Shown in pieces: positions 6,021 through 53,500 of a stretch of DNA of 64,000 nucleotides; position 1 is the first letter of the stretch; every line of letters starts with the position of its first letter. The stretch is taken from assembly GCF_046119375.1 (NCBI RefSeq), contig NW_027362761.1, positions 1,163,058,001 to 1,163,122,000 of the forward strand. The letters are read 5' to 3'. The notes below the pieces were generated by a model. It was not told where the DNA came from. It did not search any database and saw only the letters and a list, made by a program, of their open reading frames with translations. The translations under genes were made by a program, and so were the position numbers. This DNA is from Phyllobates terribilis (taxonomy: Eukaryota).

Positions 6021-7036
6021 CTAGTATTTTGTTGCACCACCTCTGGCTTTAATAACAGTCTCTGAGGCATGGACTTAATGAGTGACAAACAGTACTCTTC
6101 ATCAATCTGGCTCCAACTTTCTCTGATTGCTGTTGCCAGATCAGCATTGCAGGTTGGAGCCTTGTCATGGACCATTTTCTTCAACTTCCACCAAAGATTT
6201 TCAATTGGATTGAGATCCGAACTATTTGCAGGCCATGACATTGACCTTATGTGTCTTCTTTGAAGGAATGTTTTCACAGTTTTTTCTCTGTAGCAGGATG
6301 CATTATCATCTTGAAAAATGATGTCATCATCCCCAAACATCCTTTCAATTGATGGGATAAGAAAACTGTCCAAAATATCAATGTAAACTTGGGCATTTAT
6401 TGAAGATGTAATGACAGCTATCTCCCCAGTGCCTCTACCTGACATGCAGCCCCATATCATCAATGACTGTGGAAATTTGCATGTTCTCTTCATGTAGTCA
6501 TCTTTATAAATCTCATTGGAACGGCACCAAACAAAAGTTCCGGCATCATCACCTCGCCCAATGCAGATTCACGACTCATCACTGAATATGACTTTCATCC
6601 AGTCATCCACAGTCCACGACTGCTTTTCCTTAGCCCATTGTAACCTTGTTTTTTTCTGTTTAGGTGTTAATGATGGCTTATGTTTAGCTTTTCTGTACGT
6701 AAATCCCATTTCCTTTCGGCGGTTTCTTACAGTTCGGTCACAGACATGGACTCCAGTTTCCTACCATTCATTCCTCATTTGTTTTGTTGTGCATTTCCTG
6801 TTTTGGAGACATATTGCTTTAAGTTTCCGGTCTTGACGCTTTGATGTCTTCCTTGGTCTACCAGTATGTTTGCCTTTAACAACCTTCCCATGTTGTTTGT
6901 ATTTGGTCCAGATTTTAGACACAGCTGACTATGAACAACCAACATCTTTTGCAAAATTGCGTGATGATTTACCTTCTTTTAAGAGCTTGATAATCCTCTC
7001 CTTTGTTACAATTGACATCTCTCATGTTGGAGCCAT
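6021..7036 (-). pseudogene. Tc1 transposase pseudogene
   Basis: MAPT*EMSIVTKERIIKLL..GRPRKTS..IFSDES, then FQDDN..34 aa..NPIENLW; several in-frame stops. Confidence 0.9.
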
Positions 7037-10375: not shown

Positions 10376-10660
10376 TAGTGTTGAGCAAGTATGTTTTGTT
10401 AACCCTTTCGCCGAGTACGCTTGGGCCGAGCTCCGAGTATTTATAGCTGCTCGGTGATATGGTTGAATCGCTCCCGTGTGCTTGATTTGCAACTGTTTGA
10501 CAGCTTTATTACATGTGAGGAATGTCTATTTCTTACACATTCCTCACATGTAATAAAGCTGTCAAACAGTCACAAATCATGCACACGGGAGCGATTCAAA
10601 TACATCACCGAGCAGCTGTAAATACTCGGAGCTCGGCCCGAGCATACTCGCGCATCACTA
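10376..10660. mobile_element. hAT-like foldback MITE
   Basis: TAGTG...CACTA ends; 8-bp flanks GTGAGGAC / GCGAGGAC (1 mismatch); interior is a long inverted repeat. Confidence 0.7.
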
Positions 10661-18000: not shown

Positions 18001-21000
18001 GCCTCTAGGACTGAAAGCCGGCGGCTCCTGGGAGGAAAGAAATTAATTTTCTACCAGTAGCTGCACTTTCAGTATAGAGGCCAGGAAGAGTTGTAAGGCT
18101 ATATACCTGCAGGTTAGAGTTGTCCCAAGGTGACAGGTCCCATTAAGATATAGAGGACCTACCCTTAGGATATCAGATTGGGTACAAACACCCAGCACCT
18201 CCACCGATCAGCTCTGGATTAAAAGTAAACGGGGGCCATACAGCACAGCCATGTATTGTAGTCATTCCCAGGTACCGCTCAGATCATGTTCACTTCAATG
18301 GGAGCTGAGCCACAGTACGCAGGAGTGACCACATCATAATTTATGGAGATGTGGTGGGATGCCAGACCCTATTCCGATGGATATCGATATGTCCCATGGA
18401 CAGATCAATGGCAAACCTAGAAATACATTTAAAAAGGGGTATACCCATCTCCAAGATCCTATCCCAATATGTAGTAGGCTTAATATTAGCAAATACCTCC
18501 AATTAGAAATGTAGTATAATAGTTCTGTTTCGCTATGTCGCTTACCCTATGTGCAGGGCATTGCAGGACCTTAGATATCCATGGTTATGGCCATTAACAA
18601 CTAAAGGTCACTGTATGAGTGGTCGTAACCATGGATACCCAAGCTACTGCAATGTCCTGCACAAGGGGTAAGCAACGTAGCCAATCAGAAGAACTATCCT
18701 ACATTTCTAATTAGACGTATTTAATAATGTTACTACTACACCTACTACATATTGGGATAGGATCTTAGAGATGGGAATACCCCTATAATGTCTGAGAAGA
18801 GAACACTTTAAAGTCTGCAATAAACTTGTTTAACAGGACTGACGCTGGCATAACTTACTTGCAGGCACAAAAAAAAAAAAAAAGTGTTACTTACAGAGAT
18901 GGTAAAAGTCCCCAGGAGATCGAGTCCTTTAGGCTTTTCCTCGTTTTCAAGGCACAGAGTCAAAGGAAACGATGATTCAGGAAAAGATCCGAAGAGCTCT
19001 GTCCTGAAAGGGTTGAGTAACGTTACGTGTCGGCCTCACCTTAGACGTCTGCCACCACCTGGCGCCGTGCCCCTTACCCGCTCCGTAGCGGCACATCGCA
19101 CACTATGGCTGTGCTGGGAGCCGCAGACTTCTTGGGTGACTCTCTGAGCAGGGGGTCGAATTTCAGGTACAGGGACTGCTTTCGGAGAGCAGATTCTTTG
19201 AACTACAAAAGACCAGAAAGGGCGAAGGATTTTTTTTTTTGTAAATTCCATGTCAGGACGGACAGACAGACAATAGCCGGGACAGGTCATAAATAATTCA
19301 CTGACAATGGGAACAGAGATGTGAAAGTGGAGGAGACTTACTGAAGTGGAGCCGAAGTTCTCCAAATAGTCAATTTCAATTGGTTGGCCAAAGCCTTCCA
19401 CTGTAAGAAAGGAAGACAACAACGGTTACCCCGAGAAGTAAAATAAGCAGAAAGCGTTCATCTCGATGGACCAACCGCCACTCCTTACATTCAGTCGCGG
19501 GCTTGAAGTCAAACTCCTCTGCAGGCCTGAAGTCAGTCTGAAGGGCGGCACCGAAATCTGTGTCCACTAATCCCACGTTAGCGGGTAGCGCAGTATATTC
19601 TGGGGTCATAAGGGTCTTAGAGGATTGGTCTTCAGTCTGTGCAGCAGCAATTTCTTCAGTTGCCATCTTCACATCATCATCAACCTGAGGAGGTAACACA
19701 GGAACATGTCAGGACGCTGTTATAAGGTGATTAGCAGACAATCCCACCAGAGCATTACTCCACATCAAGATCTCTGGAGATGACTTGTTACCTTGAGATT
19801 GTTGATTATTGTTCAACAATTTTGGTTCTCAAGTCCTCAGACAGTTCTCTTCTCCTCTTTCTGTTCTCCATGCTTAGTGTGGCACGCACAGACACACAAT
19901 GCAAAGATTGAGTCAACTTCTCCCCTTTTTATCTGGCTTCAGGTTTTTATATTTCCCACACCTGTTACTTGCCACAGGCGAGTTTGAACGAGCATGACAT
20001 GCTTGAAACAGTTTACCCACAATTTTGGAAAGGTGCCAACAAATTGTCTGACTCATTTTTCAGGTTTTGTGAGATTATGTCCAAGTTGCCTGTTTTTTTC
20101 TTTTTTAGATGCGTTGTTCCAATACACAGAGGAGATGAATATGTAAGCAGAGCACCAGATGGTGTGCCCCCCCCCCCTTCCTCAGGCTGACACGAAGCAC
20201 GGGCATATCATTATCTCCAAATTGAAAGTAAAGATTACACAAGAACCACAGGACAGATTTCATCAACCAAGATATCATTTTAATCAGTGTAATGTCACCC
20301 ACCTCACAGTATATGTGGTTTACTGAGCACAATCCTACTGACAGGTGCGCTTTATATGGGTAAAATTGCAAAGTGCTTGTAAAGAACAAGAAACTTTTCA
20401 ATATTCTTATTAAAAGAAAAAAAATCCCTCAATTATTGAGCATACAGTAGTTTTATTTTTGCAGTTACTGCTAGTTATTTAGGTTACAGGCCACCTCTGC
20501 GGTCCATCAGCAGAGGCCGGTCTCTGTGGCAAGGAGCGCTCAGCTGCAAGCTCTTTGCATTACAATTTAGAAGTGCAGCTAGCCAGATGGCTGGTATCTG
20601 ACTGGCCTCAGTGCCCCTGCACTCCTCCCATTCTGCTGATCTGAACTGTCAATCATTAGGAGCGCACTGCCCCCTGACAAGCAGCAAGCCAGCAGACAAT
20701 GGAGCGATGCACTCCTGAAGAAAGGAGCCTAGACAATCACTTGGATATTAGTCCTCCTCCCAGGCAACCAACTAATCAAGCGCCTCAGCGGTCAAGTGTT
20801 GTACAGAAGTCACAGTAGAGTGCAGCGATTGGCTGCAGCGGTCACAAACAAATTAGGAGATCTTGTTACTTCCAGGACACGCATGGGCCACGAGCGACAG
20901 CAATGAAGCAGTAGGGATTAAGTCATTCTTAGATAAATGAAGACTTCTCACCTTGTTCTCCTGTGTGACATCTCCAGTCTTGTCTTCAGCTGCACCGGGC

Positions 21001-25971: not shown

Positions 25972-28262
25972 ACAGGATGTAACTCAAGATCAGCACAGGA
26001 TCAGTAATGTAATGTATGTACACAGTGACTGCACCAGCAGAATAGTGAGTGCAGCTCTGGGGTATAATACAGGTTGTAACTCAGGATCTGTAATGTATGT
26101 GATGCGTCCCCTGGGCCGTGTGTGTTGGGGAATACCCGGAGCCGGGTCTCCATTTGATGCTGGGGGTTGTAGTCTCCGTGGCGGCGACCCGGTCCGTGCC
26201 CAGGGCGGTCAAACCAAAGGGATAGTTTATATGTTGAATGTCCGACTACGCCACCCGTGGATTGCGGTCACTGGGAACCGCCGCTGCGGGCAGACCGCTG
26301 AGGCTGATGTTGTGTTTGCAGCAGAGGGGTAGGATAACTCCCCACGGGAGGAGTATAGCCTCAGGGCAGTGAGTACAGATGATGGGGGTGATGGTGCGCG
26401 GGAGCAACAGTAATGACTCAGAGTCCAGTGATGCAGTCCAGGGTCTTTACTCAGTTTTACACTCCAAGCCACTTCTGCAGGTAATGGCTGCCCACGTCGT
26501 ACTGTGCTCACCAGGTGAGGGGCTCGGCCAACTCCCAGCTACATTTGGAATGCTTTTCAGGACCCACTTCGTGTGTCCTTTCTCTGACCTGTCGTACCCC
26601 ACAAGTGACCACGTTTCTGTCCAGCTGCCTCGGGCCTTGGCGGGCAAACGTATGTTCCGTTTCCCTGGGTCCTATGTGGTGCCTTCCTAACGGGTGTAGT
26701 GAGGGGAAGTAACACGTGCAGTGCCACGGCTTCCGGTTACTAGCTGAGGGTAGTTGCTCTCCTCCACTAGATGAGGGATCCGGTTCCCTTTCTTGGCCTG
26801 ACCCTCCTACTCTGGTAGCGGCGGGCGTACGGTGGCAACTGGCCGGTCCGCACCCCTGGGGTCCCTTCACTCCACTCCTGGAGCCTTTCCTGCTCTCCTT
26901 CTCCTCCAGGCTCAGGCCTCCTTACTGGGCACACCTCTGGAGCAGAGCTCATGCAGAGCCCCTGCTCTCCGTCACTTCTCCTCAGACTGACCACCGAACC
27001 TAAGATGGCTCCTCCCTTTTATATGCTCCTACTCAGTGCACCCAGGATCTACTCTCCCCACCCACACACTACCAGGTTCCCCCTTTCTAGGTGTTGCCTC
27101 CCCCCACTCCAGCCAGGGACAGTTGTGCTCACTCTTGGGAGCATTGTTGCCCTGTCCCCCCGGAAATGTGGTGTAATGCATGTGGGTGTTAGGGTCCTGA
27201 GCCAGTCTCCGTCCTTACCTGGAAGTGAGATATCACACCTCTGGGTGAGATGCAATACCTCTGTAGCGACCGAACCCTCGGGGCGCTACATATGTACACA
27301 GTGACTGCACCAGTAGAATAGTGAGTACAGCTCTGGAGTATAATACAGGATGTAACTCAGGATCCGTACAGGATCAGTAATGTAATATATGTACACAGTG
27401 ACTGCACAAGTAGAATAGTGAGTGCAGCTCTGGAGTATAATACAGGATGTAACTCAGGATCCGTACAGGATCAGTAATGTAATATATGTACACAGTGACT
27501 GCACAAGCAGAATAGTGAGTGCAGCTCTGGAGTATAATACAGGATGTAACTCAGGATCCGTACAGGATCAGTAATGTAATATATGTACACAGTGACTGCA
27601 CCAGCAGAATAGTGAGTGCAGCTCTGGAGTATAATACAGGATGTAACTCAGGATCAGTAATGTAATGTATGTACACAGTGACTGCACAAGCAGAATAGTG
27701 AGTGCAGCTCTGGAGTATAATACAGGATGTAACTCAGGATCAGTAATGTAATGTATGTACACAGTGACTGCACAAGCAGAATAGTGAGTGCAGCTCTGGA
27801 GTATAATACAGGATGTAACTCAGGATCAGTAATGTAATGTATGTACACAGTGACTGCACAAGCAGAATAGTGAGTGCAGCTCTGGAGTATAATACAGGAT
27901 GTAACTCAGGATCAGTAATGTAATGTATGTACACAGTGACTGCACCAGCAGAATAGTGAGTGCAGCTCTGGAGTATATTGCAGGATGTAACTCAGGATCA
28001 GTAATGTAATATATGTACACAGTGACTGCGCAAGCAGAATAGTGAGTGCAGCTCTGGAGTATAATACAGGATGTAACTCAGGATCCATACAGGATCAGTA
28101 ATGTAATGTATGTACACAGTGACTGCACCAGCAGAATAGTGAGTGCAGCTCTGGAGTATAATACAGGATGTAACTCAGGATCAGTAATGTAATGTATGTA
28201 CACAGTGACTGCACAAGCAGAATAGTGAGTGCAGCTCTGGAGTAGAATACATGATGTAACTC
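25972..28262. repeat. 86-bp satellite (some 99-bp variants), about 13 units, split by a solo LTR
   Basis: Unit TGTACACAGTGACTGCAC(C/A)AGCAGAATAGTGAGTGCAGCTCTGGAGTATAATACAGGATGTAACTCAGGATCAGTAATGTAATGTA. Confidence 0.95.
26100..27290 (-). mobile_element. Gypsy solo LTR (1191 bp) with 4-bp TSD TATG
   Basis: TG...CA ends; TATG at 26096-99 and 27291-94; homologous to LTR 1260-2320, which gives the orientation. Confidence 0.9.
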
Positions 28263-28416
28263 CTCCATAGTAGTGATGCAGGGAGATCCCCGAACCCCGC
28301 ATAACTACTACATAACGCTGCCACACATTCACTTCCATGTTCCGCTCACACAACGCCCACCCTGCCCCAGTACCAGCGGCCACTCACAGCACCACGTCCT
28401 CTCCGCCGCACGTTAC

Positions 28417-31065: not shown

Positions 31066-31165
31066 GTCACGTGACTCTGAGCACCGCCATATAACTACAC
31101 TTCCCGGCATTCCATGCGATCTGTTTGGCCGGAAGTGTGCCCTGTTCTTGTGGTGGCCGGAAGTG
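31066..31165 (+). promoter_or_regulatory. TMEM129: TMEM129 housekeeping-type promoter
   Basis: GTCACGTGAC E-box at 31066-75; ZNF143-like ACTACACTTCCCGGCATTCC near 31095; two CCGGAAGTG ETS/GABP sites at 31129 and 31157. Confidence 0.7.
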
Positions 31166-31202
31166 TCCGCTGTTCTCCGGGTTCCCGCCTCTCCTCGGTG
31201 TA

Positions 31203-31407
31203 ATGGATAGTCCGGCTGTCACGTTTACTTTGGCTTACGTGGTGTTCTCCGTGTGTTTTGTGTTCACCCCCAATGAGTTCCACTCGGCCGGTATCACCGT
31301 GCAGAACCTGCTGTCCGGCTGGCTGGGGAGTGAGGACGTGGCCTTCATCCAGTACCATGTGCGGAGAACCACGGCCACTGCGGTGGTGCACTCCCTGCTG
31401 CCCCTGG
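31203..31407 (+). CDS. TMEM129: TMEM129 exon 1
   Basis: MDSPAV..HSLLPLG|gtgagt. Confidence 0.96.
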
Positions 31408-34400
31408 GTGAGTGGCTGCCTCCTCCCGACTGCACCTCCTTGATCTGCCGCCTGTGCCTCCTCTGCCTGTGCCCCCCCCTCCCATACGCCGCCTGCGCCT
31501 CCTTTGCCTGTGCCCCCCCTCCCATACGCCGCCTGCGCCTCCTCTGCCTGTGCCCCCCCTCCCATACGCCGCCTGCGCCTCCTCTGCCTGTGCCCCCCCC
31601 CCTCCCATACGCCGCCTGCGCCTCCTCTGCCTGTGCCCCCCCTCCCATACGCCGCCTGCGCCTCCTCTGCCTGTGCCCCCCCCCCCTCCCATACGCCGCC
31701 TGCGCCTCCTCTGCCTGTGCCCCCCCCCCTCCCATACACCGCCTGCGCCTCCTCTGCCTCTGCCTGTGGGCCCCCCTCCCATACGCCGCCTGCGCCTCCT
31801 CTGCCTGTGGGCCCCCCCCCCCATACGCCGCCTGCGCCTCCTCTGCCTGTGCCCCCCCCCCTCCCATACGCCGCCTGCGCCTCCTCTGCCTGTGCCCCCC
31901 CCCTCCCATACGCCGCCTGCGCCTCCTCTGCCTGTGCCCCCCCCTCCCATACGCCGCCTGCGCCTCCTCTGCCTGTGCCCCCCCCCTCCCATACGCCGCC
32001 TGCGCCTCCTCTGCCTGTGCCCCCCCCCCCATACGCCGCCTGCGCCTCCTCTGCCTGTGCCCCCCCCCTCCCATACGCCGCCTGCGCCTCCTCTGCCTGT
32101 GCCCCCCCCCCTCCCATACGCCGCCTGCGCCTCCTCTGCCTGTGCCCCCCCCCCCCTCCCATACGCCGCCTGCGCCTCCTCTGCCTGTGGGGCCCCCCCC
32201 TCCCATACGCCGCCTGCGCCTCCTCTGCCTGTGGCCCCCCCCCTCCCATACGCCGCCTGCGCCTCCTCTGCCTGTGGCCCCCCCCCCTCCCATACGCTGC
32301 CTGCGCCTCCTCTGCCTGTGGCCCCCCCCCTCCCATACGCCGCCTGCGCCTCCTCTGCCTGTGCCCCCCCCCTCCCATACGCCGCCTGCGCCTCCTCTGC
32401 CTGTGCCCCCCCCCTCCCATACGCCGCCTGCGCCTCCTCTGCCTGTGCCCCCCCCCCTCCCATAGACCGCCTGCGCCTCCTCTGCCTGTGGGGGCCCCCC
32501 ATACGCCGCCTGTGCCTCCTCTGCCTGTGCCCCCCCTCCCATAGACCGCCTGCGCCTCCTCTGCCTGTGGGGGCCCCCCATACGCCTCTGCCCGTCAGGA
32601 TTGTGACTTCTCCCTCTTCTCATTCTCAGGTTATTATATAGGAATGTGCTTCGCTGCCCCGGAGAAGCAGCTGTATTACTTCTCCTCTGCCAGTGAAGGC
32701 TGGAGGATCTTTGCTGTATTTGTGGTCATCCTCCCGACCATCACCGGCTGCCTCGCCCTCTACTGGTCTCAGAAGAAGTGGCAGAACCACCCTCTGGCGC
32801 AGATCCTGTCCCACCACGCGCTGCCTCAGTCTGACTGGAGGATTGTTGCTTCCTCCATCAACAGGGAGTTTAGAAGAATTGACAAGTTTGCAACTGGGGC
32901 GACGGGTGCCCGGGTCATCGTCACAGACACGTGGGTGATGAAGGTCACCACCTACAAGATTTACGTGGCACAGCAGCAAGACATTCATCTGACAGTGACA
33001 GAGTCCAGGCAGCACGAGCTCTCCCCAGACTCCAACACGCCCGTGCAGTTCATCACCATACTGGTCGCCAGCGTCAACCCCAACGTCAAGTCTTTCGATA
33101 TCAGGTAGTGTATGAGCTTCTGGTAAGTCTCCCATACACAGTACATGTCCAGCTGACTCTTGTACTGTATATGGGGGCTCTTCTAGTCACTGATAATGGA
33201 TGATGTCATCTCTGATGTTTTGGAGACTCCTTCATGTAAATTGTGCCTCCAGCAAAAAAGACATTCAGGCGTCTGATTTAAAGGGCTATTTGTGTGAATA
33301 TAAACCCCTTTAAAAGAATAGAATTTTTAATTCAGATATATAAAAAAAAAACACCAACACATCCCAGGTGTATAGGGAGGAAAGGCCACCATGTAAATGG
33401 TGTTATCAGGGCACATAAACATCGCATAGACAGGGAGGTATATATAGATCCTGCCAATGGGAATTGTCCTTACAACAGCCAATTATTGTGGTTGGAAAGA
33501 TAATAAACTCCACAGTATGAATGTCTGATCAGAATACACATAAACAGCGAAGTGTATATAAATCCGAACCATGGGAATTGCCCTTGGATCATCCAATTGC
33601 AGTTAGATATATCATAACGACCAAACTGTGAATGTCTGATCGAACGCTCAAAGCCAAGGAATGATGTGATCAGAACAAGGATCTCTATCGATAGAGATCT
33701 TTGTTTGGATAGACCATGATACAATAATATCCTTATTACATCCCAGGTCATAACACACATTAGGCCTGTGTCTCCCTAGGGTGGACACTAGGCTGTATGT
33801 GCCTAGCAGTGGAGGTTGGCACCCTAGTAATGCGGGAGTTGGCTCCTCGGCTGCTCGCCCTAATCGTCCCTGCTAGATACACCAGTATACTAGTCTAGAC
33901 AACATGGTTCCTATACTAGAAGATATGTAAGCACGCCAGAAAATAATAGAAAATGAAGACTTATGTCAGTAGATAGTTATACATGATATGCTGCGCCTCT
34001 ACGCGTTTTACCATATGCTGGATCATCAGGAGGCTTTTTCATGATATTGGTATGACACCAGAGTGGTGTGACAAGACAGTCGCTCTGGATCCGGCTGTAG
34101 AAGGTCACTGCTCATGGCATTGCAGATGCCTTCTTGATCCCCTTCCCCCCTCATATCTGTAGTATAGTTATATCTTTCTCCCTTTAGGACCCAGCAATGA
34201 CCTCTACGTTCTGCTACTAATTGACACACCCTTGCTAGGTAGTTAAAAACTCAGTGTCTCCAGAGAGTCGCTGGTGATGGCTGTATGTTCCTCTGTCCAT
34301 GCGTGGAGTAATAGTAGTCAGCTAGTTTCTTCTTGTGGACTTCCCTTGGAGGACAGTTGACGTTATCTCTCTGGTGTCTTCTCAAGCTAAGTGTATCCCC

Positions 34401-35223
34401 TCTGTTTGTTTACCTTGTCTTTAGTTACAGTGGGGCCTGACTAGTGTTCACCCCGTCCCCTCCCTACCTAGGGCCTAGCTCTAGGGACATTCGGGGCTTA
34501 GGTTCCTGCTTGGCAATAGGTGTGGAACCTCTATAGGGATGATAGGATAGTCAGGGTCATATTAGATCTGCCTAGGGGTCTCAACTGCCCCTTTCCCCTC
34601 TTCCCGTTGTTGTACACTTATGCCTTCCCTCACGTCGTGTGACGTGGGGTAGTCAAAGGCCCATTGTGGTATTTGTCTTATGACCTGTGATGTTATAAGA
34701 ATATTATCAGTCTATCCAAACCACAATAATTGGCTGCTGTAGGGACAATTCCCTATGGAAGGATCTATATACGCCCCCCTGTCTATCCGATGTTTGTGCT
34801 CTGATCACACCATTTTCTGCCTCTGAGCATTTGATCAGACATTTACATAGTGGCCTTTTTCTTCATTGTACACCTGAGATGTGTTGGTGTGTGTTTTTTT
34901 TTTTTTTTTTCTTTTCTTTTCTTTTTAATGTATCTAAATAAAATTGTATTCAAGGGTTTATATTCACACATACTCTATTCCCCTTTTTTGGTAAATCAAA
35001 CTTTACTCTGATATTAAAGTGGTATTCACATCGTATGTATTCATTCTCAAAACCTACTAAATCAAAGTGTGTCTCACATATAGACATCAGACATCGTACA
35101 TCAAATGAATTTACAACATGCCTCCCAGAGTGTTCTACACGTGGTCACCACACTGAGGCCGTCCCTAACGCGCGTTTCGGCGCTCTGCCTTTCTCAAGGG
35201 GCAGTACCACTTGTCACACACCT

Positions 35224-35266
<43 letters not shown>

Positions 35267-38200
35267 ATATATAGGGGGGCCAATTGCCTCCTAATCACCA
35301 CCTCTTTATACATGTCTACACCTCCCCCCTACACACGTGACCACGCCAACCCTACCCCACCGCCAATTATACACAGACCGACGCGCCTTGCGTCCCCAAA
35401 GAGGGGCGGAATTGACCACAGACGTTTCCCCGGTATAGCGGAAGTGACGTTCCTTATGTGACGAGTTTGGGCGGAACCTACGTCATACGTGTCATCATTA
35501 AGGGCGGAAGTGACGTTGTTCACATAGCGTGGTTGGGCGGAACTTGCATCATACACAGCGTCGTTAAGGGCTTAAATGCACCCAAGTACATTCACCATGC
35601 CCATAGATGACGCAGAGAAGTCACCGTTACCAGGATACACGGCAGCCACGTCCAGGACGTTTGAGGACTCCGTAAGCCAGCGTATACACCAGGACCGCGA
35701 CCCCACTGCGTTCAGGCATAGCCCATTTGACCAAAGGTTCACTGTAAATCACATCGGACTCGCACACAAGTGAAAACAGCAAGAGATCCTATACACAACT
35801 ATGGGACCTCATTATCACAAAACAATGATAGATACAGACATAGCTTTCTTATTTTCTTTTATATTTATAAAGAGGTACCCAGAATACATACTAAGATATA
35901 GTAAATAAGTATAGGGTCACATTATATATGGGACCAATAACACGATAGATATGAAATACTCTATATCATGTCATGTGCACATTAACCCATATCTCTCCCC
36001 AAATTATCTCTTATAATACCAAATACTTTGAAAAAAATATTGCAATACTTTCGTCATATATAAATAAAAATTCACAATCATTAGCATTACAATAATATCA
36101 TGGTATAATTGGCGCATATGTACACAGATGCAAAAAAAAAAAGGGAAATATCGGGTATTTTCCTCCACTGTACATAATACACTTAAGAACGAATGGGTCA
36201 GGGAAGAGGAGTCTTTCATCCACATATATGGGGGACACCACAGAGCTCCATAGCCTCTCACTATTCTCCATTATGGTATCTGTGGTACGGTGTGAAGAGA
36301 ACCTTCACGTTGCATCAATGGGTGGATGTATATTGCCGTAATTATCCACAACAGGTAAGCGACAAACAGACACATAAAAACCTAGAAATTAAAACAACAA
36401 TTAGATATACAAACATAAAAGGGATTCTTTTCATTTAGATTTGTTGGTTATACAGAGGACAGCAGACTATAAAAATGGGGCGAAACTGATATTTTCATTG
36501 AGTCCAGTAGGATGTAGAGTGTTTAAGGTCCACATCCACCTAGACTCCAGTCGAGCTAATCGTTGAGAAATCGGACCACCACGTATCCCTGCCTCGATAG
36601 TATCGATACCCCGAACCCTCAATAGGCTTGGGTTACTTTGATGGTAACGTTTAAAATGTCGGGGAGTGGTTTTCAGCGTGGATGCGTCCACGTGGTCCGC
36701 TGAGGCTGCAATCCCCAGTATCAGTCCTCTCTTTTGAGCAGCAACATATATATTTATAAATATAATATCATTCACCAATGTACTATATTTGGTTGCTGTG
36801 GTGTTCTTTCAGTCATATTGCAGTTAAAAACTTAGTATAGTCTTTCTGATTCGCTATGTCTTTCTTCATGTGCAGGGCATTGCTGTAGCTTAGGTATCCA
36901 TGGTTACGACCACCAGCAACTAGCTAACTGTCACTATATCAATGGTCACAACCATGGATACCTAAGGTCCTGCACATGAGGAAAGACATAGCAAATCAGA
37001 AGAACTATACTACATTTCTAATTGGAGGGATTTACTATTACACTTACTACATATTAGGATCTTGGAGATGGGAATACCCCTTAAGGGCTGTAGGGCATGG
37101 AAGAGAAATGAAGGATCTGTCATTTATTCCTTGTTTATATATTTGCAGATTGAACTCTACAGAATACGGCGACCTGAAGGAGAAGCTTCGCGCCCCCATA
37201 CGAAACGCAGCCAACGTGGTGATACATCAGACGCTGAGCGACATGTTCCTGGATACGTTCCGCTCCCTGGTGGAAGCCAATCAGGTGTACGAGCTGCAGA
37301 GCAACCGGGTAATTCCTGCAGGGCAAGGGGCTGACGTCCATTACCACAGTACACTGTGTCCATGTGTCAGGGATAGAAAAGCTGGGCTCGCGTGTCTGCC
37401 CATATCCTACTTGTATCAGATGGTTGGGACATTTGGAGTATCTTCCCATATCTGTTTTATCCCCCTCCTCCACCATTTTACTCCCCTTTTTTGCTAATTC
37501 TCCACTTTTCCTAGGCCTGTACCTTTTGGTCAGGAAGAGCAATCACTTTATGAATGGTGGATCTGGAAAAAAAATAATTCTTGTTTTGTTAAATCTGAAT
37601 TTTTATATATTTTTTTTTTAAAACCAGTTTTGACTTTTTTGAGACTTTAGAGGGTATTCCCATCTCTAAGATCCTGTCCAAATGTGAAGTAATTGCAAGT
37701 ATCTCCAATTAGAAATGTAGTGTAGTTCTTCTGATTCACTATGCCTCTTTGCAGGGCATTGCAGTAGCTTGGGTATCCATGGTTACCACTACTAATAATG
37801 ACTGTTAGTTAACTAATGGTCATAACCATAACTAGCTAAGCTATGGTTATGACCAGTAGCTAACTGTCATTATTAGTGGTTGTAACCATGGATACCCAAG
37901 CTACTGCAATGCCCTGCAAAGAGGCATAGTGAATCAGAAGAACTATACTATGCTTCTAATTGGAGGTATTTGCTGTCATTATTAAACTTGCTACATATTG
38001 GGATATGGGAATAGCCCTGTACCTTTTTAATGAGGGGGCTCACTTTTAGTAGTACATACAACAATTTGGGGGGACGTGCAGTAACTGAGCAACTTTAATT
38101 CTGGTGAAGTCAGTGGGGACCCCACGATTGTCTGCAGCAGAACCATTTAAATGCTGCTGTCAGATTGTTAGCGGCATGTAAATGGTTAAATGGCAGCAAG

Positions 38201-38678
38201 CTTCCATAGTGGTGGCTGCCAACAGCCTTTGCGGATATGTGGTTGGGTTTTCTAGGGGTCTTCTTAAGGAGACTCATGGGTAATACATTGCTTCCTGCTT
38301 GCCACCTGCAGACGTGGCACCTACTATCTCCGGGGGGCTATAATGGCGGCCATGTTGGTTGTCCTTCAGCTTTTCCTAGGGACAGATCTGAGTCTAGAGT
38401 AAGACTGGACCTATTTCCTCTCTTTTCAGGAGCTGGAGCCCTGCATTGGCTGCATGCAGACTATTGCCAACATCAAGCTGGTGAAGTATTGCCACGAGGC
38501 AATCGAAGGAGAGTGTCGGCAGTGTTACTGCCGGCCCATGTGGTGCCTAACCTGTATGGGCAAGTGGTTCGCAAGCCGCCAGGACCAGCAGCATCCGGAG
38601 ACCTGGCTGTCCAGCCAAGTGCCTTGCCCCACCTGCCGAGCCAAGTTCTGTATAGTGGACGTGTGCCTAATCCGGTGA
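31203..38678 (+). CDS. TMEM129: E3 ubiquitin-protein ligase TM129, 4 exons, 362 aa
   Basis: MDSPAVTFTLAYVVF..; exons of 205/475/160/249 nt with GT-AG sites; C-terminal Cys-rich RING-like domain (CIGC..CYCRPMWCLTC..CPTCR). Confidence 0.97.
31446..32590. repeat. C-rich ~39-45 bp minisatellite (about 27 copies) filling TMEM129 intron 1
   Basis: (C)6-12 TCCCATACGCCGCCTGCGCCTCCTCTGCCTGTG. Confidence 0.96.
32630..33104 (+). CDS. TMEM129: TMEM129 exon 2
   Basis: YYIGMCFAAPEK..INREFRRIDKFATGATGARVIVTDTWVMKVTTY..FDIR. Confidence 0.96.
34200..34645. mobile_element. Probable LTR remnant of another Gypsy family
   Basis: Resembles frog LTRs as I recall them and ends ..CGTGTGAC; no TSD found. Confidence 0.4.
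35040..36780 (-). mobile_element. 5'-truncated Penelope-like retroelement (GIY-YIG C-terminus plus pseudo-LTR)
   Basis: ORF 36467-36778 ends RHFK..H..LRVRGID..RGG..LESRWMWTLNTLHPTGLNE..PFL*; a hammerhead-like motif lies downstream. Confidence 0.8.
35163..35201 (-). ncRNA. Minimal type-I hammerhead ribozyme variant
   Basis: Minus strand CCCC-UUGAGAA-A-GGC agagc GCC-GAAA-C GCGC G-UU-A-GGG. Confidence 0.65.
36830..37084. mobile_element. Family A foldback MITE, left end missing
   Basis: Right TIR GGATCTTGGAGATGGGAATACCCC followed by TTAA. Confidence 0.75.
37149..37308 (+). CDS. TMEM129: TMEM129 exon 3
   Basis: LNSTEYGDLKEKLRAPIRNAANVVIHQTLSDMF.. Confidence 0.96.
37650..38018. mobile_element. 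Family A foldback MITE
   Basis: Same TIR and internal palindrome as 18435-18784. Confidence 0.75.
38430..38678 (+). CDS. TMEM129: TMEM129 exon 4 (RING-like domain)
   Basis: ELEPCIGCMQ..CPTCRAKFCIVDVCLIR*. Confidence 0.97.
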   Translation, partial: ELEPCIGCMQTIANIKLVKYCHEAIEGECRQCYCRPMWCLTCMGKWFASRQDQQHPETWLSSQVPCPTCRAKFCIVDVCLIR

Positions 38679-41405: not shown

Positions 41406-44029
41406 GGGCTGGTAAAAGAAACCAAAATTCAGTGTTTAAGATCTATGTACGATACTTTGGACGAAAGATGTGTATGGTAGAAATTTACACTATAAAGACT
41501 CAAGGCAAAAAAACAGAGGTCTAATTCTACATTGTCGCTGGATTATTTAGAAATTGGTGCGAGACGTCTGCCTCCCGCCCTCTCAGGGCCATGATCACGT
41601 CATGGTCCAGTTCAGACCTGCATATCCTTACATGGCCTTTAGCCACCTCACACATGGTTTGGAAGCAGATGCCCCCAGGGTCTTGTCCTGATTTTCCGCC
41701 ACCTCCTATTATACGGACTTCCTAATCTCCATTTCATGGTCCTTCTCTAGGCTGGGAAAATTACAAAGCCCCTCATTTAAGGAGTACCGCCGCTCCTGTG
41801 TGTATATACATTTGACCGTACAATAGGCATAGACTCTCCCCTCCATGTTTCTTATCTGTGTACAGCGGTTTCCTATTCAGGTTGATGTTTAGTGACAAAC
41901 AAGTTGGTAAAATGTCCCCCGCATGGGGTAAAGATGGCCATTCACATGCGCTGGTTTGGCCCTCAGCCATTTCTCCCTGCCCCACCATATATATGAGCCC
42001 TCAACTTGGGAAAGAGGAGGAGAAAATGATTGCTAGACCACTTTGGCGACCGACCGTTATCTCCCCTGACAGCTGAGTTGGGAGAGACCCCCATACATAG
42101 TAGATTGGCAGCTTTATAAGAGGACTATGCTGATGTGAGACACCTCTGGTGGAAATCCAACATGGCCACTACTGTATTTCCCATAAGGGGAAAGTTTGGA
42201 CACCCCAAAACATATTAAAACATGCTAAAATCATCAAACTGTGTATGCCGCAGTCTATGTCTGTGAATCTGTGCTCAGCTTGCAATACTCGGCCCTGTTG
42301 TCGGGTCGCCTGCCCCCATCTAACCATGCCCATGTCTGGAGAACAGGCCGGGTGTTGTGATCTGATCACGGTCAGGGTTTCCCGGATGGGTGAAAACGAC
42401 CTTATTAGTCAGCAAAAATATCTGATGGAACTTAATACTTTTGTAGCTGTACAGTGTCTACAGCTCCAATGTAGATCTATAAGTTTCCATGGTAACAGAC
42501 TACAAACAAACCCTGCGTAGTCTGATCCTGTGGTCACATTCTCATCCACCTTCTCCCCCTAACTGCTGATATATCGAATACAATGATTGTCCAAGACCTA
42601 CGGGACGGACTGAAGGGCGGTTATACAACCGCAGGATCAGACTTCACACCATTTGTTATCATGGAGACAGACAGGTCTGAATAGAAGCCATAGATACCGG
42701 ACGGTCGGATGTTATCGATCGTTGCTTAATTTATTTATTTTAGAAGCATTGAGTGAAAATGGACGTAACCTTGAAGCTTGCTATAGGTTAATGTTGGCTG
42801 GACCTGAGTGATTTCAACATGCCTGATCTCGTGTGTCGGGATCCTGTTGGCTTTAGGCCTCGTTCAGACATCAGTGATTTTTCTTTTTTTTTTTCGGTCT
42901 GGGTTTCATTTTGTTTTTCTCGGATTAGAAAGAATAAAAAAAAAAGTTTCTTTCTCTTTTTCTATCTAGCAGCCCATGAAAAATGTATTTGTTCTTGGAC
43001 CCCTACACTTGCTTTGATGATTTTGATGGATCAACGTTGGACGTTTCTCTGTGAAAAATCACGGCCTGATCCACGATCATGGACACAAGTACTGTCCATG
43101 AAAAACAAGAATAGCACTCGTATGCAAAAAAAAAAACTGAGGTGTGAATGAGCCCTTATTCCAGAGACAAAGCAATGTGCTTAGAAGCTGATGGATTGAG
43201 GAATATCTGTATGTGCAATTCCCTAATATTCATGTTATGGGTCCTCCTATTACTTGCCAAACAAGTAAAATCTCTCACCCCACCTTGCAAACATCATTTA
43301 CATGTCTAAGGATTCTTTGTAAATCACGTTACCCCCCCAAGGGTGAGAACCTCCTGGGTTTTTAGTTTGCATTTGTTTTGTCAGGGGAAGTTGTTTTTTT
43401 TTTAATAGGACAATGGATCCTTCATATATCTCAAAAATAAGCTTTAAAGGGTTATTCCCATCTGCATTGATGGCTATTGTCAGATAGAGCTCCTACTTAT
43501 AAGCACTTTTGCAATTTACTGCTTATTAAAATTTGCAACCGTTCTTGAGATATTAGCATTTTTCTTTTGTTTACAGCTTGTTTCCTAGGAGACCGACCAC
43601 TGCTGCGATCTGGCTTGTAAACGCTGAGATGACGCTGTCTGGGATTAGGAGATAACTGTGCACTTTAGCGATTCTGGACAGCTTAAAAAAATACTGCTTA
43701 CAAGTTTAATAGAAAAGAATAATCAATGCGCATGTTTTGCTCCTGCTGTCTAGCGGCAGTGGTCGGTCTCCAAGGCAACGAGGTGAAAACAAAAAAGGAA
43801 AATGTTATTAATATCTCAAGAATGGATGGAAATTTTACTAAGAAGTAAATTACAAAATTGCTTGTTTTTTTTTTTTTCACCAGCACGATCTGACAAAACC
43901 CATTTCAGAAGATGGGAATGAGACTTATCTGCACACAGTCGCTGCTAACGGCAGGGGGTCCTCGCATACAATAGTGGCCCCTTTTTATGCCGAAAATAGA
44001 TTATACAGATCCAATTTACAAACCATTTT

Positions 44030-45165
44030 TCATCAGTGTACTTGGTCTAACTTACAGACTGTTTTCAGTGAATGCCCTAGATCCGATTTATAGACCGTTT
44101 TTCATCAGAGCGCTGAATCTGATTTATAGACTGTTTTTTCATCAGTGTGCTTAATCTGAATTACAGAACGTTTTTCATCATTATGCTGGATCTGATTTAT
44201 GGACCGGCTTCCATCAATGTATAGGATCTGATTTATGGACTGTTTTTCATCCATGCACTTATTTTCATCCATATTTGGGTCTCTGTGTCCATTTTCACCA
44301 TCAGTGTCGCATCTGGTTTTCTTGAGTGCAATTAAAAAAAAATCATTAAGCACATCAGTGTGCTTAATCCGAATTACAGACCATTTTTAATTAGTGCGCT
44401 GGATCCGATTAACAGACCATTTTATATTAGTGCGCTGGATCCTATTTACAGACCATTTTACATCACTGCTCTGGATCTGATTCATGGACCGTTTTCCATC
44501 AGTGCGCTGGATCCAATTTATGGACTGTTTTTCATTAGTATGCTGGATCTGATTTACAGACCATTTTATAGCAGTGCGCTGGATCCGATTTAGAGACCAT
44601 TTTATATCAGTGCGCTTAATCCGAATTACGGACCGTTTTTCATCAGTGCTTAATCCAAATTACGGACTGTTTTTCATCAGTGTGCTTAATCCAAATTACG
44701 GACCGTTTTTCATCAGTGTGCTTAATCCAAATTACGGACCGTTTTTCATCAGTGTGCTTAATCCAAATTACGGACCGTTTTTCATCAGTGTGCTTAATCC
44801 AAATTACAGACCGTTTTTCATCAGTGTGCTTAATCCAAATTACGGACCGTTTTTCATCAGTGTGCTTAATCCAAATTACGGACCGTTTTTCATCAGTGTG
44901 CTGGATCTGATTCATGGATCGGTTTCCATCAATGCATTGGATCTGATTCATGGATCGGTTTCCATCAATGCATTGGATCTGATTCATGGATCGGTTTCCA
45001 TCAATGCATTGGATCTGATTCATGGATCGGTTTCCATCAATGCATTGGATCTGATTTACAGACTGTTTTTCATCGGTGCACTGAATCTGATTTTCATCCA
45101 TCTTTGGTCTCTGTGTCCATTTTCACCATCAGTGTGACATCTGGTTTTCTGGTGTTCAATTAAAA
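44030..45165. repeat. ~36-bp minisatellite, probably internal to a MITE
   Basis: ATCAGTGTGCTTAATCCAAATTACGGACCGTTTTTC and variants; the block ending CCATCAGTGT..CATCTGGTTTTCT..CAATTAAAAA is duplicated (~44280 and ~45110). Confidence 0.9.
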
Positions 45166-46074
45166 AAAAAAAAAAAAACTTCCAAGCTTCTCCTATCCAT
45201 CACACAACAAAAAATGGATGACATCCATCTGCTGTCCATTTTTTTCACACATCCATTGATATGAATTGGGCGAGTGTGATCAGAGACTTGGATCAAAACC
45301 GGACATGTCTCTGTTTATATTTGTAGACAGTCGGCCCTCAAAAATAACATGGACATGTGAACAGCCCCCTAGGCTATAATGGGTATGTGTACTGTCCATG
45401 AAAAAAAATCCCATGTGAATGAGGCCTTAGGGAGCAGGATAGCAGCAGCTGGGCCTCCACCTATCCATGACATGTCATCCATTACTTCAGGAAATGTGGA
45501 TGGTGTGGATTTCCTGTGTTAGGGGCAGGAGGAGGTGGGGGACACACAGCTGCCATTGTGTGAAGCCGGTTTCACACACCCAGCAGTACAGTCTGTGATG
45601 GGTCGGACCGGCTGAGGGTCTCTTGACCCAAACTCAACTGTTGAGTTTAGGTCCGGAGATCCGTGGCTGCCGGTGTGGACAATGTGGTCTCGGACCGTGA
45701 AGGTCAGATGGAGGGATTTACGTTCAGTATATTGGCGAGATACGTTAACATGGCTGCCGTATCCCTCTGTTCTACTGGCGCTCACCACTTTAGTAGCGCC
45801 ATCGACAAGTGTCCCAGTCATAGGCCCCAATTGGCATTGACTCTATTTCTCTAGGCTCGACACAACATGACTGCCCGCAGGAAAGACCTCGTACAGCATC
45901 ATTAATGTACCGTCAAGCGTTGGCAAGATATCCATAGTGCCACGTGGCAACTGACTGAAATTCATCTCTCTTTCCAATACAACGCCGTATCAAAAATACG
46001 GAAATGCGCAATCCAATATGGCCGCCATTACAATTCACACGGGGGGTCGCTATTTCCTTAGCTTTTATAAACAC

Positions 46075-47372
46075 ATTACAAGCAGAAGGTAGCCATTTTG
46101 TGCGTTCTATTGTATACATTACAAGCACGAGGTAGCCATTTTGTGAGCTTCTCCACGCACATTACAAGCACAAGGTAGCCATTTTGTGCACTCTATTGCA
46201 CACATTACAAGCACGAGGTAGCCATTATGTGAGCTCCACCACACACATTATAAGCATGAGGTAGCCATTTTGTGATCTTTTAAATTCATTGCTAGCACAA
46301 GGTAGGCATTTTGTGAGCTCTACTACATATATTAAAATCACAAGGGAGCCATTTTGTGAGCTCCACACACATTACAAGCACGAGGTAGCCATTTTATGAG
46401 ATCCACCACACACATTACAAGCACGAGGTAGAAATTATGTGAGCTCAACCACACACATTACAAGCACGAGGTAGCCATTTTGTGATCTTTTACACTCATT
46501 GCTAGCACGAGGTAGCCATTTTGTGAGCTCCATCACATATATTAGAAGCACGAGGTAGCCATTTTGTGCACTCTATTGCACACATTACAAGCACGATGTA
46601 GCCATTATGTGAGCTTCACCACACACATTATAAGCACGAGGTAGCCATTTTGTGATCTTTTAAATTCATTGCTAGCACGAGGTAGCCATTTTGTGAGCTC
46701 TACTGCATATATTACAATCACAGGCTAGCCATTTTGTTAGCTCCACACACATTACAAGCACGAGGTAGCCATTTTGTGAGATCCACCACACACATTACAA
46801 GCACGAGGTAGTCATTTTGTGATGTTTTACACTCCTTGCTAGCACGAAGTAACCATTTTGTGAGCTTGTACGCTCATTGCTAGCACGAGGTAGCCATTTT
46901 GTGAGCTTCTCCATACACATTACAAGCACGAGGTACCTATTTAGTGATATCCACCGCACACATTACAAGCACGAGGTAGCTATTTTGTGAGCTCCACCAC
47001 ATATATTAGAAGCACGAGGTAGCCATTTTGTGCACTCTATTGCACACATTACAAGCACGAGGTAGCCATTATGTGAGATCCATCACACACATTATAAGCA
47101 TGAGGTAGCCATTTTGTGAGCTTTTCCACACACATTACAAGCATGAGGTAGCCATTTTGTGAGCTCTACTACATATATTACAATCACAGGGTAACCATTT
47201 TGTGAGCTCCACACACATTACAAGCACGAGGTAGCCATTATGTGAGCTCCACACACATTACAAGCACGAGGTAGCCATTATGTGAGCTCCACACACATTA
47301 CAAGCATGAGGTAGCCATTATGTGAGCTCCACATACATAACAAGCACGAGGTAGCCATTTTGTGAGCTCTGC
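46075..47372. repeat. ~43-bp minisatellite, about 30 units
   Basis: CACATTACAAGCACGAGGTAGCCATTTTGTGAGCTCCAC(CA). Confidence 0.93.
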
Positions 47373-48059
47373 CAGAATTCATTGCATTCTGGCAAATAAT
47401 TGGAGACATTGTCCCTGAAAAACATAGACAGTGAGGTGATTGGCTCCTGGAAAAATGAGAGGCTTAAATCACAAAATGGCTGCTGTCAAAGGAATTTCAT
47501 TCAAAAGCGGTATTCTAATAGAAGTGAATGGGGACCAAGAGATTTGGAAAAAAATGTTGCATGGCGTTTACCATTCACTTCGATTTAATGGGTTGTTCGG
47601 ACAAATGATATTGATCCTTAAAAATGGTCATCAATATCATGTCTACAGGGGTCCGACACCCAACACCCGGCCCCACAGATCAGCCGTTGTCAGCTAACTT
47701 GCAATGGAGCCATCCGCAGATCTTTGCAGCAGCTACTACACAGTTTTCGGACTGTTTCGGCTCTGTTCACTGTCTACATCCTGCCGTAGCTGGTGATGGC
47801 TGATCAGTGGAGGTGCCAGGTGTTGGACTACCACCAATCTTATATTAATCACATATCCAAAAGATGGATCATCAATATAATGAGGTTGGTCAACCCCTTT
47901 AAATGGCTCAATACACATTGAAGCCAATGGGTGCAGTCCAGCTGTCCCCAAAAATGTCTGTCAGGGAACACGTAGAGTAAAAAGAAAGTTCAATTCTAAT
48001 ATTGTCAAGGCTACCAACTGTCCTGGGTCCAGAAAGACAGTCCCGGATTTGGGGAGCTG

Positions 48060-50538: not shown

Positions 50539-53500
50539 GTAAGTTGTGCTCTCTGGAGGGGATCGTGCTTGGTCTGTAACGGTTCTTAGAATTCTGTGGT
50601 CCTGTCTGTTGCTTTCCTGTTTTTTTTTTTTTTTTTTTATTCAATAACTTTATTAGCAATGTTCATTTACAGTAAATTTTAATAAAGGGTAAACAATATA
50701 TATTTTTTCTGTTGCACCAAAGTAAAGTCTGTAAATGTAGGTGCTTAGGAGTTGTTAGTGTCCCCACCAGCAACCAACACCGCTCTCCTTTATGATATCC
50801 ACATTGGTATGCTGTGATCTTCTCCCTATTACCTGATTCTGTGCCCAATTCATTTTTTATAACCTGTAAATCACTTTTTGTTACTTAAAAGCAATGGTTT
50901 TCCAAGATGGACCCTCCCTTTAAGAGTGGCTATGCATGGCTGTAAGTGTGCCTTTAAGGCGCCGTCCATTGTTGTGTATCTGAGGGGCAGGCAGGTGTCC
51001 TCTATAGGCTTCTGTGGTAAAATAGTGAAGTAAGAAACTATTAGTACACTATTGATGGGTTCATTTATATATTTCCTTCAAAGAGCCATAACTTTCTCTG
51101 TAGCCATGGGTGTTTTTTTAAAGGACTAGGTATGTATGTATGTTTTGTACAATTGCACACAAAGCAATTCAAAATTGTGTATAGAACATTTTTCTATTTT
51201 CATATATTTATATTTTTTCATATATATTGTATTTTGAGGAGGAAAACCCAAACACTTTTTTTTTTAAATAAAATGTTGGTGAGTCTTATGCGCTTTTACG
51301 GTAGCTTACCTGGGGTGAGGGGGTGCGGTGGAGCAGGGTCGCTGCTGTAGGAAGCTGGTGGAGACAAAAGATGCTGTGGGATTCGGGTTGGTAGGAGGTG
51401 GTCTGTGGAGGCAGGAGATGCTGCGGGCCCCGTGCTGGGAGAGGGTGTCCCGGCGGTGCGAAGCTGCGGGCCCCGTGCTGGGAGAGGGTGTCCCGGCGGT
51501 GCGAAGCTGCGGGCCCCGTGCTGGGAGAGGGTGTCCCGGCGGTGCGAAGCTGCGGGCCCCGTGCTGGGAGAGGGTGTCCCGGCGGTGCGAAGCTGCGGGC
51601 CCCGTGCTGGGAGAGGGTGTCCCGGCGGTGCGAAGCTGCGGGCCCCGTGCTGGGAGAGGGTGTCCCGGCGGTGCGAAGCTGCGGGCCCCGTGCTTCCATA
51701 AAATTTCGGTGGTGAGTGGAGCCCCCTTCCCATTAACTTTCCTGCGGTGGGCTTCGGGAAAATGGTGGCCGGAGGAGATGTGTGCGCAAATTGAGATCTC
51801 AAGACCTGACTCCCAAGATCTCAATTTGCGCATGCGCCGCCTCTTTTATGAAAGCCCAGGTCCAGCAGCATCACTGTTATAGGGGAAATAATTTATACTT
51901 TTTTTTCCTTATTCCCTTTATAGGAATAAATCCTGCAATCTCTTGCTCACTTATTCGGTGTACTGCTATACCACAATACTGTAGCACAGTGTTAAATTGA
52001 GGATCTTTTAGGAAGTCCAGCCAAGTTCTAACATGGGAAACACTGAGGACCTCCAGTAGGTCCTCAGCTGCCATGGCAGCCCTTGCTTTAGATCAGGGGT
52101 CTCAAACACGCGGGCCGCATGCGGCCCCTGAGGCTGCTTTATGCGGCCCGCAGGCACAGACCCCTTGACGATCCCGACCTGGTCCAGGAGGAGCCGCCGA
52201 CAGCAGCGCTGAATTGCCGCACAGAGACGGTCTCCCAGCACTGCATTTCCAATGCCAGCCGCTGGCCAATCAGAGGCCAGCAGCTGATATCTGCGTGTCG
52301 GCGCAGCGAGTATGACGTCATTGCCATATGCAGATGTCAGCTGCTGGCCTCTGATTGGCCGGCGGCTGACATTGAAAATGCTGTGCTGGGAGACAGTCTC
52401 TGTGCGGCAATGCAGCGCTGCTGTCGGCGGCTCCTCCTGGACCAGGTCGGGATCGTCAAGGGGTCGGACTCTGTGGTGCCTGCGGGCCACATCTGCAGGA
52501 AGGCTGCCGAGGGAACGGAGGACAGGTGAGAATCATCTTTTTTTTTTTCTATTTTGTGTGTGAAGAACAACACAGGGGGCACATAGCCACAGGATGGGGA
52601 CCTGGATGGGGCACATAGCCACAAGAGGGGACCTGGATGGGGCACATAGCCACAAGAGGGGACCTGGATGGGGCACATAGCCACAAGAGGGGACCTGGAT
52701 GGGGCACAGAGCCACAAGAGGGGACCTGGATGGGGCACAGAGCCACAAGAGGGGACCTGGATGGGGCACATAGCCACAAGAGGGGACCTGGATGGGGCAC
52801 ATAGCCACAAGAGGGGACCTGGATGGGGCACAGAGCCACAAGAGGGGACCTGGATGGGGCACATAGCCACAGGATGGGGACCTGGATGGGGCACATTAGT
52901 ACAAGATGGGGACTTGGATGGGGAACATTACTACAAGATGTTTTCCATTATTACTATATGATGCTAATTGTAAGACAATATTACTGTATGTGGCCAATTG
53001 GGGGAAATAAAATTGTAAAAAAAATAAAAAATAAAATAAAGCATGAAAAAATATTGGGCACTAAAAATGCTGTTTTATATGTAAACTAAAGTAAACACAA
53101 AAAAGTGCACGTTTATTATCGCCACATCCATAACGACCCAAGCCATAAAAAAATAAACACGGCAAAAATGTTCAAAAGGTGTATACAAAAAAAAATGGTA
53201 TCACTAAAAATGTCACATTGAACAAAGAATGCGGCCCCCCAAATTCAAATTTTTTCCATGTGCGGCCCATATACCCAGCCGAGTTTGAGACCCCTGCTTT
53301 AGATAGTGTGGTCAATGGATGCCATGTTGATGTCTCACTTTTTTTTTTTTTTAAATGCCCCTGACATGCTTTCCTGTAGCATTTAAGAGGTTAAACTTGC
53401 TATCTGTGAGGGTCTCGCTGCTTTGCCCCCTCTAGCGATACATTTTATCACCTGCCTTTATCTTTGTGTAGATAAATTCATTGGTTAATTTTCTGTAAAA

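Follow-up and report, generated by a model that had tools for sequence, protein, structure and literature searches.

Does the hammerhead-like motif that lies antisense within an intron of TMEM129 still cut RNA, and does its variant core cut in the retroelement lineage to which it belongs? The motif occupies positions 35163..35201 (minus strand) of the window, the 64-kb stretch of Phyllobates terribilis DNA that was analysed. From the sequence and an alignment of sister loci it reads as a minimal type I hammerhead motif with a U3-A8 core. Sisters were picked by similarity to the element stretch in the window; 29 were compared, and 28 of them are aligned at position 35166. The 5' strand of stem I is CCCC (2.4-2.1, 35198..35201), each position being C in all 28 or 29 aligned sisters. 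The core follows as U3 U4 G5 A6 G7 A8 A9 (UUGAGAA, 35191..35197), and its conservation is borne out by the scan for family copies, in which U3 and A8 are both kept in 29 of 29 sisters. The alignment then places an unpaired A (35190) and a stem II of GGC/GCC (35189-35187 and 35181-35179) with a 5-nt loop, together spanning 35179..35190. Within this loop, base 35185 is G in the window copy and A in all 29 sisters. G12-A13-A14 (GAA, 35178-35176) and the 8-nt palindrome of stem III, ACGCGCGU (35175-35168), are read directly and cover 35168..35178; the palindrome is predicted to mediate pairing between two copies. The predicted scissile bond, also from the sister alignment, joins U17 (35167) and N1.1 (35166), and the 3' strand of stem I in the window copy is AGGG (35166-35163).

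The defining features of such hammerheads are largely present. The window copy has the NUH triplet GUU, a palindromic stem III, a core of the form N3-UGA-N-N8-A with a paired 3-8 position plus GAAA, and an unpaired base (A35190) 5' of a stem II that starts with G10.1-C11.1, a pair found in 28 of 30 U3-A8 loci. The initial annotation had listed the core UUGAGAA, stem II GGC/GCC, GAAA, a self-complementary stem III and GUU, and all are found on the minus strand. Its reading of stem I needs correction at two points. The "extra A" after the triplet is not an insertion, since A35166 occupies position 1.1, where 25 of 28 aligned sisters have G. Stem I is "extendable" solely in a register shifted by one base that is private to the window copy; the family stem I is CCCC/GGGG, and the window copy has it with a C2.1·A1.1 mismatch. 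A stem I longer than 4 bp finds no support in the U3-A8 families, as a fifth pair occurs in 11 of 20 distinct U3-A8 loops, no more commonly than in shuffled sequence (p=0.21). A relaxed scan of the 64-kb window gave six matches to the core plus stem II, and GAAACGCG (a CG palindrome) is present in only the one at 35163..35201. Rfam covariance models found no hammerhead among their 21 window matches at E<=5. The motif is a real, minimal type I hammerhead of an already published variant.

The surrounding DNA identifies its carrier as a Penelope-like element (PLE). A DNA search of the 10.6-Gb assembly with the window element gave 42 matches, with the best 40 of 204 candidates scored, and 12 wider loci were compared. 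These sister loci delimit the body of a 5'-truncated Neptune-type PLE (EN C-terminus, 3' region and pLTR) at 35048..36717 (minus strand), which is 81-89% identical to its closest sisters; family homology ends at 35048, before the usual 3' ends. The last 82-86 codons of the PLE ORF, from the GIY-YIG endonuclease domain, lie at 36467..36717 (minus strand) and are 91% identical to those of sister L033 over 82 columns. A second, 104-bp piece (36717..36820, plus strand) repeats the 3' tail of the family in inverted orientation and adjoins the 5' truncation point. The pLTR and the tandem or inverted, 5'-truncated structure are those of PLEs. Sisters encode a YIDD RT motif, a cysteine linker (CX2-5CXXC) and a GIY-YIG-like motif, with Pfam matches to RVT_1 (E=1.8e-4) and GIY-YIG (E=0.012) that both lie under the curated cut-offs; in the 1044-aa frame of L043 the linker reads CGCAPCGRC. 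The single ORF of EN+ PLEs, RT followed by a C-terminal GIY-YIG, is therefore found in the sisters, and the window copy retains the EN tail only. Such a CX2-5CxxC linker, placed between RT and EN, is a mark of both Neptune and Nematis (PMC8557442), and the putative Neptune assignment is based on this motif and on host range. Among the best 150 of 51,552 candidates, the eight closest EN matches (at least 79% identity) are limited to open frames of 190-466 aa, and more distant PLE families have frames of 1029-1063 aa. With such short frames in its close EN relatives, the family of the window copy looks decayed. A non-LTR retrozyme, which is a short non-coding tandem repeat whose units each contain a hammerhead, was rejected as the source because the motif is single and joined to an ORF remnant. 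The ORF remnant, the sister motifs and the inverted tail confirm the earlier placement of the hammerhead in a Penelope pseudo-LTR, and we regard its identity as a PLE hammerhead as practically certain.

The core variant is widespread in this genome. We counted four exact patterns that differ at positions 3 and 8 alone, and found C3-G8 2010 times, U3-A8 1025 times, U3·G8 150 times and C3·A8 74 times, with expectations under independence of 1381, 396, 779 and 703, respectively. Reversed controls gave 0, so the U3-A8 pattern exceeds chance. Paired 3-8 cores make up 93% of the 3259 exact matches, counts that represent related copies and not independent events. By hand count, CUGACAA accounts for about 62 of the 74 C3·A8 matches, the sequence expected if CUGACGA underwent CpG decay, and the U3·G8 class includes a replicated subfamily with at least 14 identical loops among the matches listed. 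The distribution agrees with the proposal that U3-A8 arose as a compensatory swap. The variant is present behind intact frames of 1044 and 1063 aa (L043 and L050). The first 30 U3-A8 loci contain 20 distinct stem II/loop sequences, and the second pair of stem II swaps between GC and CG (18/10). Trees were built from the C-terminal 620 columns with 47 rows, 29 loci being left out for a missing motif or ORF, and again with 40 rows after removal of seven short ones, including the window copy. Both contain two U3 groups with C3-G8 lineages between them, and U3·G8 is nested in one of the two. Two independent origins of U3-A8 are not claimed, as a single clade is not rejected by the AU test (p=0.128). 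U3-A8 is a lineage trait, and its retention by selection is very probable.

Several further observations concern the 3-8 position. Replicated U3·G8 PLE subfamilies (for example L136, L137, L139, L142 and L326-L350) are nested among U3-A8 families, and the wobble core is a possible intermediate or reversion step between paired cores. In the interval G000:C9:322-329 Mb, numerous PLE copies with 1029-aa frames, identical to one another and in their U3·G8 motifs, recur about every 100 kb, which probably reflects a large segmental or tandem duplication. Close to a family copy, at L034:341 (plus strand), there is a further C3-G8 hammerhead-like motif, which is unrelated and has a shorter palindrome.

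The window copy departs from its sisters at the cut site itself. At position 35166, 25 of the aligned sisters have G and three have A, and the A of the window copy is a G1.1→A substitution that disrupts the stem I pair beside the cut (1.1-2.1), which is intact in 25 of 28 sisters. Mismatches in innermost stem I are described as the most harmful to cleavage (PMC8495972), and candidates with such a mispair beside the cut were discarded by Perreault 2011 (PMC3088659). The predicted probability of stem I pairs is at most 0.04 in the window copy versus 0.76-0.89 in sister L004, and the target dimer energies are -27.1 versus -34.1 kcal/mol. The cofold minimum of L004 is near a double hammerhead, and that of the window copy is a different structure (-43.5). 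The loop change in the window copy is modelled to favour a competing hairpin. Folding is weak evidence here. The stem I of L004 disappears with other sequence boundaries, and none of the monomers outscores its shuffles (z 0.2-0.75), for which reasons single-strand folding was dropped as support. The copy has also changed outside the motif. A (CA)n expansion at about 35227-35262 puts its TATA-like box ~35 nt farther from the ribozyme than in sisters, and its predicted splice donor is GC, not GT.

The suggestion in the initial annotation that this ribozyme is possibly active is therefore not supported for the window copy, given the substitution at 1.1, the loop change and the lack of a partner hammerhead within the 64-kb window. 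At the level of the family, activity of the variant is probable, as judged from copies that begin at the cut point in a sister family. From its sequence, the window copy is probably a decayed and inactive descendant, not a working ribozyme. We consider it rather unlikely that it is still weakly active through a stem I shifted by one base and trans pairing with another family transcript, the A being left unpaired or serving as N17 (cut after UUA). Its core, stem II and palindrome are intact, its CCAAT and TATA boxes persist, and the shifted stem I makes six of seven pairs in a dimer of -32.7 kcal/mol, near that of the sister dimer. However, the shifted register leaves either an unpaired base at the cut or a stem III bulge (-25.7), and the cofold minimum is another structure altogether. 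The window holds no second hammerhead, and the family is a small one (24 probe matches) whose eight closest EN matches have short frames.

In the wider lineage the ribozyme sits between candidate transcription and splicing signals. Motifs in the window copy predict a pLTR promoter at 35265..35284 (minus strand), with a CCAAT box at 35280-35284 and a TATA-like box from 35273, and a splice donor at 35120..35123 (minus strand) for the 5' intron of the element, which is GC here and GT in L033, L035 and L036. With motif patterns that were chosen after viewing the flanks of the same elements, 38 of 47 elements have a TATA-like box 33-42 nt above the core, versus 4 of 47 in a control window, CCAAT is present in 24 of 47, and a donor-like motif is predicted 20-75 nt below the cut in 30 of 47 versus 2 of 47 in the control. 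The flanks of the 47 elements are otherwise divergent, and the order of promoter, ribozyme and donor appears to be conserved in the PLE lineage. One C3-G8 clade (L044-L053, L150, L156, L159 and L160) has neither a CCAAT box nor a nearby donor motif, unlike most of the other families.

The 5' ends of short genomic copies carry a possible record of cutting. Copies were sampled with probes 3' of the cut site, so that presence of the ribozyme was not required. The 163 matches fall into four families, with 24 in the window family, 56 in U3-A8 family A, 43 in U3-A8 family B and 40 in C3-G8 family C. After removal of eight duplicates, 84 copies that reach >400 nt upstream were set aside, leaving 71 short copies. 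With N1.1 as 0, their 5' ends number 10 in -400..-51, 43 in -50..-26, two in -25..-3, 13 in -2..+3 and three from +4 to the probe (n=71). Each arm of an inverted pair contributed an end of its own, so that chiefly the -50..-26 count is inflated. The ends in -50..-26 fall about 30 nt downstream of the TATA box and likely mark the transcript start, the copies being cDNA of uncut RNA. The starts in -2..+3 are unevenly spread, with seven in family A, five in the window family, one of 12 in family C and none of 16 in family B. Family A ends lie at 0, 0, 0, 0, 0, +2 and +2, with none from -25 to -1, and window-family ends at -2, -1, +1, +3 and +3. All five exact-start copies of family A retain the four G and lack C17. 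Two of them, L188 and L196, are flanked by TSDs of 15 and 16 bp, and L290 has a 12-bp TSD. There is no clear TSD in three of the five exact-start copies or in the five window-family copies, and L277 and L171 are possible internal deletions. The chance of five of seven ends falling at one predefined base is about 2e-7, or 5e-6 without the doubtful L277. Pooled over families, 18 ends lie between -25 and the probe, and 13 of them are in -2..+3, bounds that were fixed after viewing the window family (p=1e-7, or 1e-5 minus three doubtful copies). The cut-site starts of family A suggest partial cleavage in vivo by the U3-A8 variant. No report of copies that start at the cut site was found in the part of the literature surveyed, and the portions consulted of PMC7229834, PMC6431247 and bioRxiv 10.64898/2026.07.22.740005 contain nothing on copy ends.

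Two other sources of shared ends were rejected. Splicing would not explain shared 5' ends near stem I, as the upstream flanks vary among copies, and later insertions that split the ribozyme are at odds with the absence of its 5' half upstream in the 37 copies checked (0.5-1.5 kb). Two side observations concern copy structure and transcripts. In head-to-head inverted insertions, both arms often stop inside the hammerhead or immediately 5' of it, where transcripts likely start (L172/L173, L177, L180/L181, L189/L190, L200/L291, L202/L203, L205/L206, L229/L230 and L261/L262). A 390-nt contig with a related hammerhead at its end occurs in runs X10 and X11, guessed to be RNA, at a depth of 245-367 (748 nt in X13), and could be an abundant short or circular transcript. 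A retrozyme behind this contig was rejected, since the 25 copies matched by one pattern are dispersed and form no short tandem array.

The pile-up at the cut site could also come from stalling or template switching of the reverse transcriptase at the GC-rich stem I and palindromic helix. The U3-A8 motif would then have a structural role, in dimerisation or protein binding, and would seldom cut in vivo. The low in vitro activity of minimal hammerheads (PMC4209133) and the anole PLE, whose hammerhead is dispensable for insertion and yields no cut-site reads (PMC11167929), both point this way, as do the ends at +1 to +4, the lack of a peak in family B and the clustering of inversions in the ribozyme region. 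The position of the family A ends speaks against it. If synthesis stalled at stem I, copies should stop 3' of the G run, yet the four G are kept, and a stall at stem III should often leave the unpaired N17, yet C17 is in none of the five. Exact starts at 0 without C17 would thus be better explained by scission 3' of N17 than by stalling of the polymerase. A purely structural role also leaves the covariation of the catalytic 3-8 pair unexplained, and we judge stalling to be an improbable source of these ends.

Cleavage is the reading that we prefer, and it can be set out as a sequence of steps. In tandem elements, the CCAAT/TATA promoter in the pLTR would start transcription just 5' of stem I, so that the ribozyme takes up the first 40-50 nt of the RNA, before the splice donor and the ORF. 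Two ribozymes, from the 5' and 3' pLTR or from two RNAs, would pair via the ACGCGCGU palindrome and cut after N17, possibly aided by the element's protein, and the cut would strip the capped leader from the RNA. Uncut RNA would be reverse-transcribed and inserted (43 of 71 short copies), as would cut RNA (13 of 71), and cutting would therefore be partial and not required for transposition. As far as copy ends and motifs allow a judgement, hammerheads of this PLE lineage probably cut in vivo. The explanation as a whole, in which the window copy is likely inactive and a fraction of the transcripts of intact relatives likely undergoes self-cleavage, is one that we hold to be fairly probable. We lean more narrowly toward its most specific form, in which a Neptune hammerhead behind the transcription start removes the cap, the U3-A8 variant cuts in the germ line, and 5'-OH RNA is retrotransposed to give copies within TSDs that start at the scissile bond.

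The motif itself adds little, as the variant has been published and the window copy is probably dead. The family data touch on the open question of whether PLE hammerheads cut in living cells. If the cleavage reading is true, genomes hold a record of PLE-ribozyme cleavage in vivo, which would serve as a per-family readout for C3-G8, U3-A8 and replicating U3·G8 cores. Cleavage is directly testable in this one genome, where both U3-A8 and C3-G8 are represented by young, intact families with defined start and cut sites.

The host gene remains to be considered. Matches to PF10272 (TMEM129) mark exons at 31251-31409, 32626-33108, 37138-37308 and 38427-38672, all on the plus strand, and with the junctions read place the PLE insertion in intron 2 (GT...AG, 33105..37148). 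The motif is indeed antisense to TMEM129, as first described. The accompanying idea that this orientation explains its tolerance is not needed, since the copy is probably inactive; with no 1.1-2.1 pair, no cis partner and an antisense position, it would have no effect on TMEM129 pre-mRNA. Retention or co-option of the motif for a TMEM129 host function, tolerated thanks to its antisense orientation in intron 2, is scarcely credible in view of the private changes at 1.1, in loop II and at the donor and of a sister identity (81-89%) that looks like neutral decay. As far as is testable, the antisense position is incidental.

The rest of the window contains other genes and repeats. TACC3 exons (TACC_C, Aurora-A binding) lie at 15193-15822 and 19036-19425 (minus strand), upstream of TMEM129 and opposite to it. 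A LAP2alpha-like domain, frequent in DIRS-type retrotransposons, and a DDE_3 transposase fragment are found at 4654-5385 and 5972-6568 (minus strand). MITE-like inverted repeats occur at 10412-10650, 18421-18788, 36821-37082, 37695-37973, 52148-52476 and 59214-59560, and account for the sub-threshold Rfam miRNA matches in the window; the repeat at 36821 adjoins the PLE's inverted tail. Minisatellite arrays are present at 27248-28277 (86-97 nt), 31095-32625 (40-45 nt), 44026-45151 (36 nt) and 46055-47378 (43 nt), the second occupying most of TMEM129 intron 1.

The closest known systems are the PLE hammerheads of Cervera and De la Pena 2014 (PMC4209133), which describes about 1,300 U3-A8 matches in Schistosoma PLEs; the U3-A8 variant is therefore not new. 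Minimal PLE hammerheads are described there as having an unpaired base ahead of stem II and a palindrome, and as being weakly active in vitro, where dimers are required. The motifs here share with them the type I form, a short stem I, the unpaired base between 9 and 10.1, G10.1-C11.1, a palindromic stem III, the pLTR site, mostly single truncated copies and the U3-A8 core. Unlike in the Schistosoma PLEs, the palindrome is longer (8 nt), stem II is 3 bp instead of 7-8, the host is a vertebrate Neptune element, and the window copy has a C·A mismatch at 2.1-1.1. The supplementary alignment of that work includes a U3·G8 core from a Saccoglossus PLE, and by the machine-read text of its Fig. S4C the Xenopus Xen_7 and Xen_8 may be U3-A8 too. 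Natural U3-A8 hammerheads were also reported by Perreault 2011 (PMC3088659), which cites their in vitro activity as earlier work. The same 3-8 covariation is seen in that set, where U3-A8 is rare, whereas here it makes up about a third of the exact matches of a single genome and extends across whole retroelement lineages. The C-terminal GIY-YIG, the CX2-5CxxC linker, 5' truncation, the inverted 5' piece and the pLTR hammerhead are all shared with the Neptune EN+ PLEs of Craig 2021 (PMC8557442). Drosophila Penelope likewise has its promoter and intron in the same region (PMC2377424), but that promoter is internal and TATA-less, unlike the CCAAT/TATA-like boxes of the window family. In the anole Poseidon element PAc, a C3-G8 hammerhead overlaps the start codon, cleavage needs protein and is dispensable, and no RNA-seq reads end at the cut site (PMC11167929). 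Unlike PAc, two of the four families here have genomic copies that start at the cut site.
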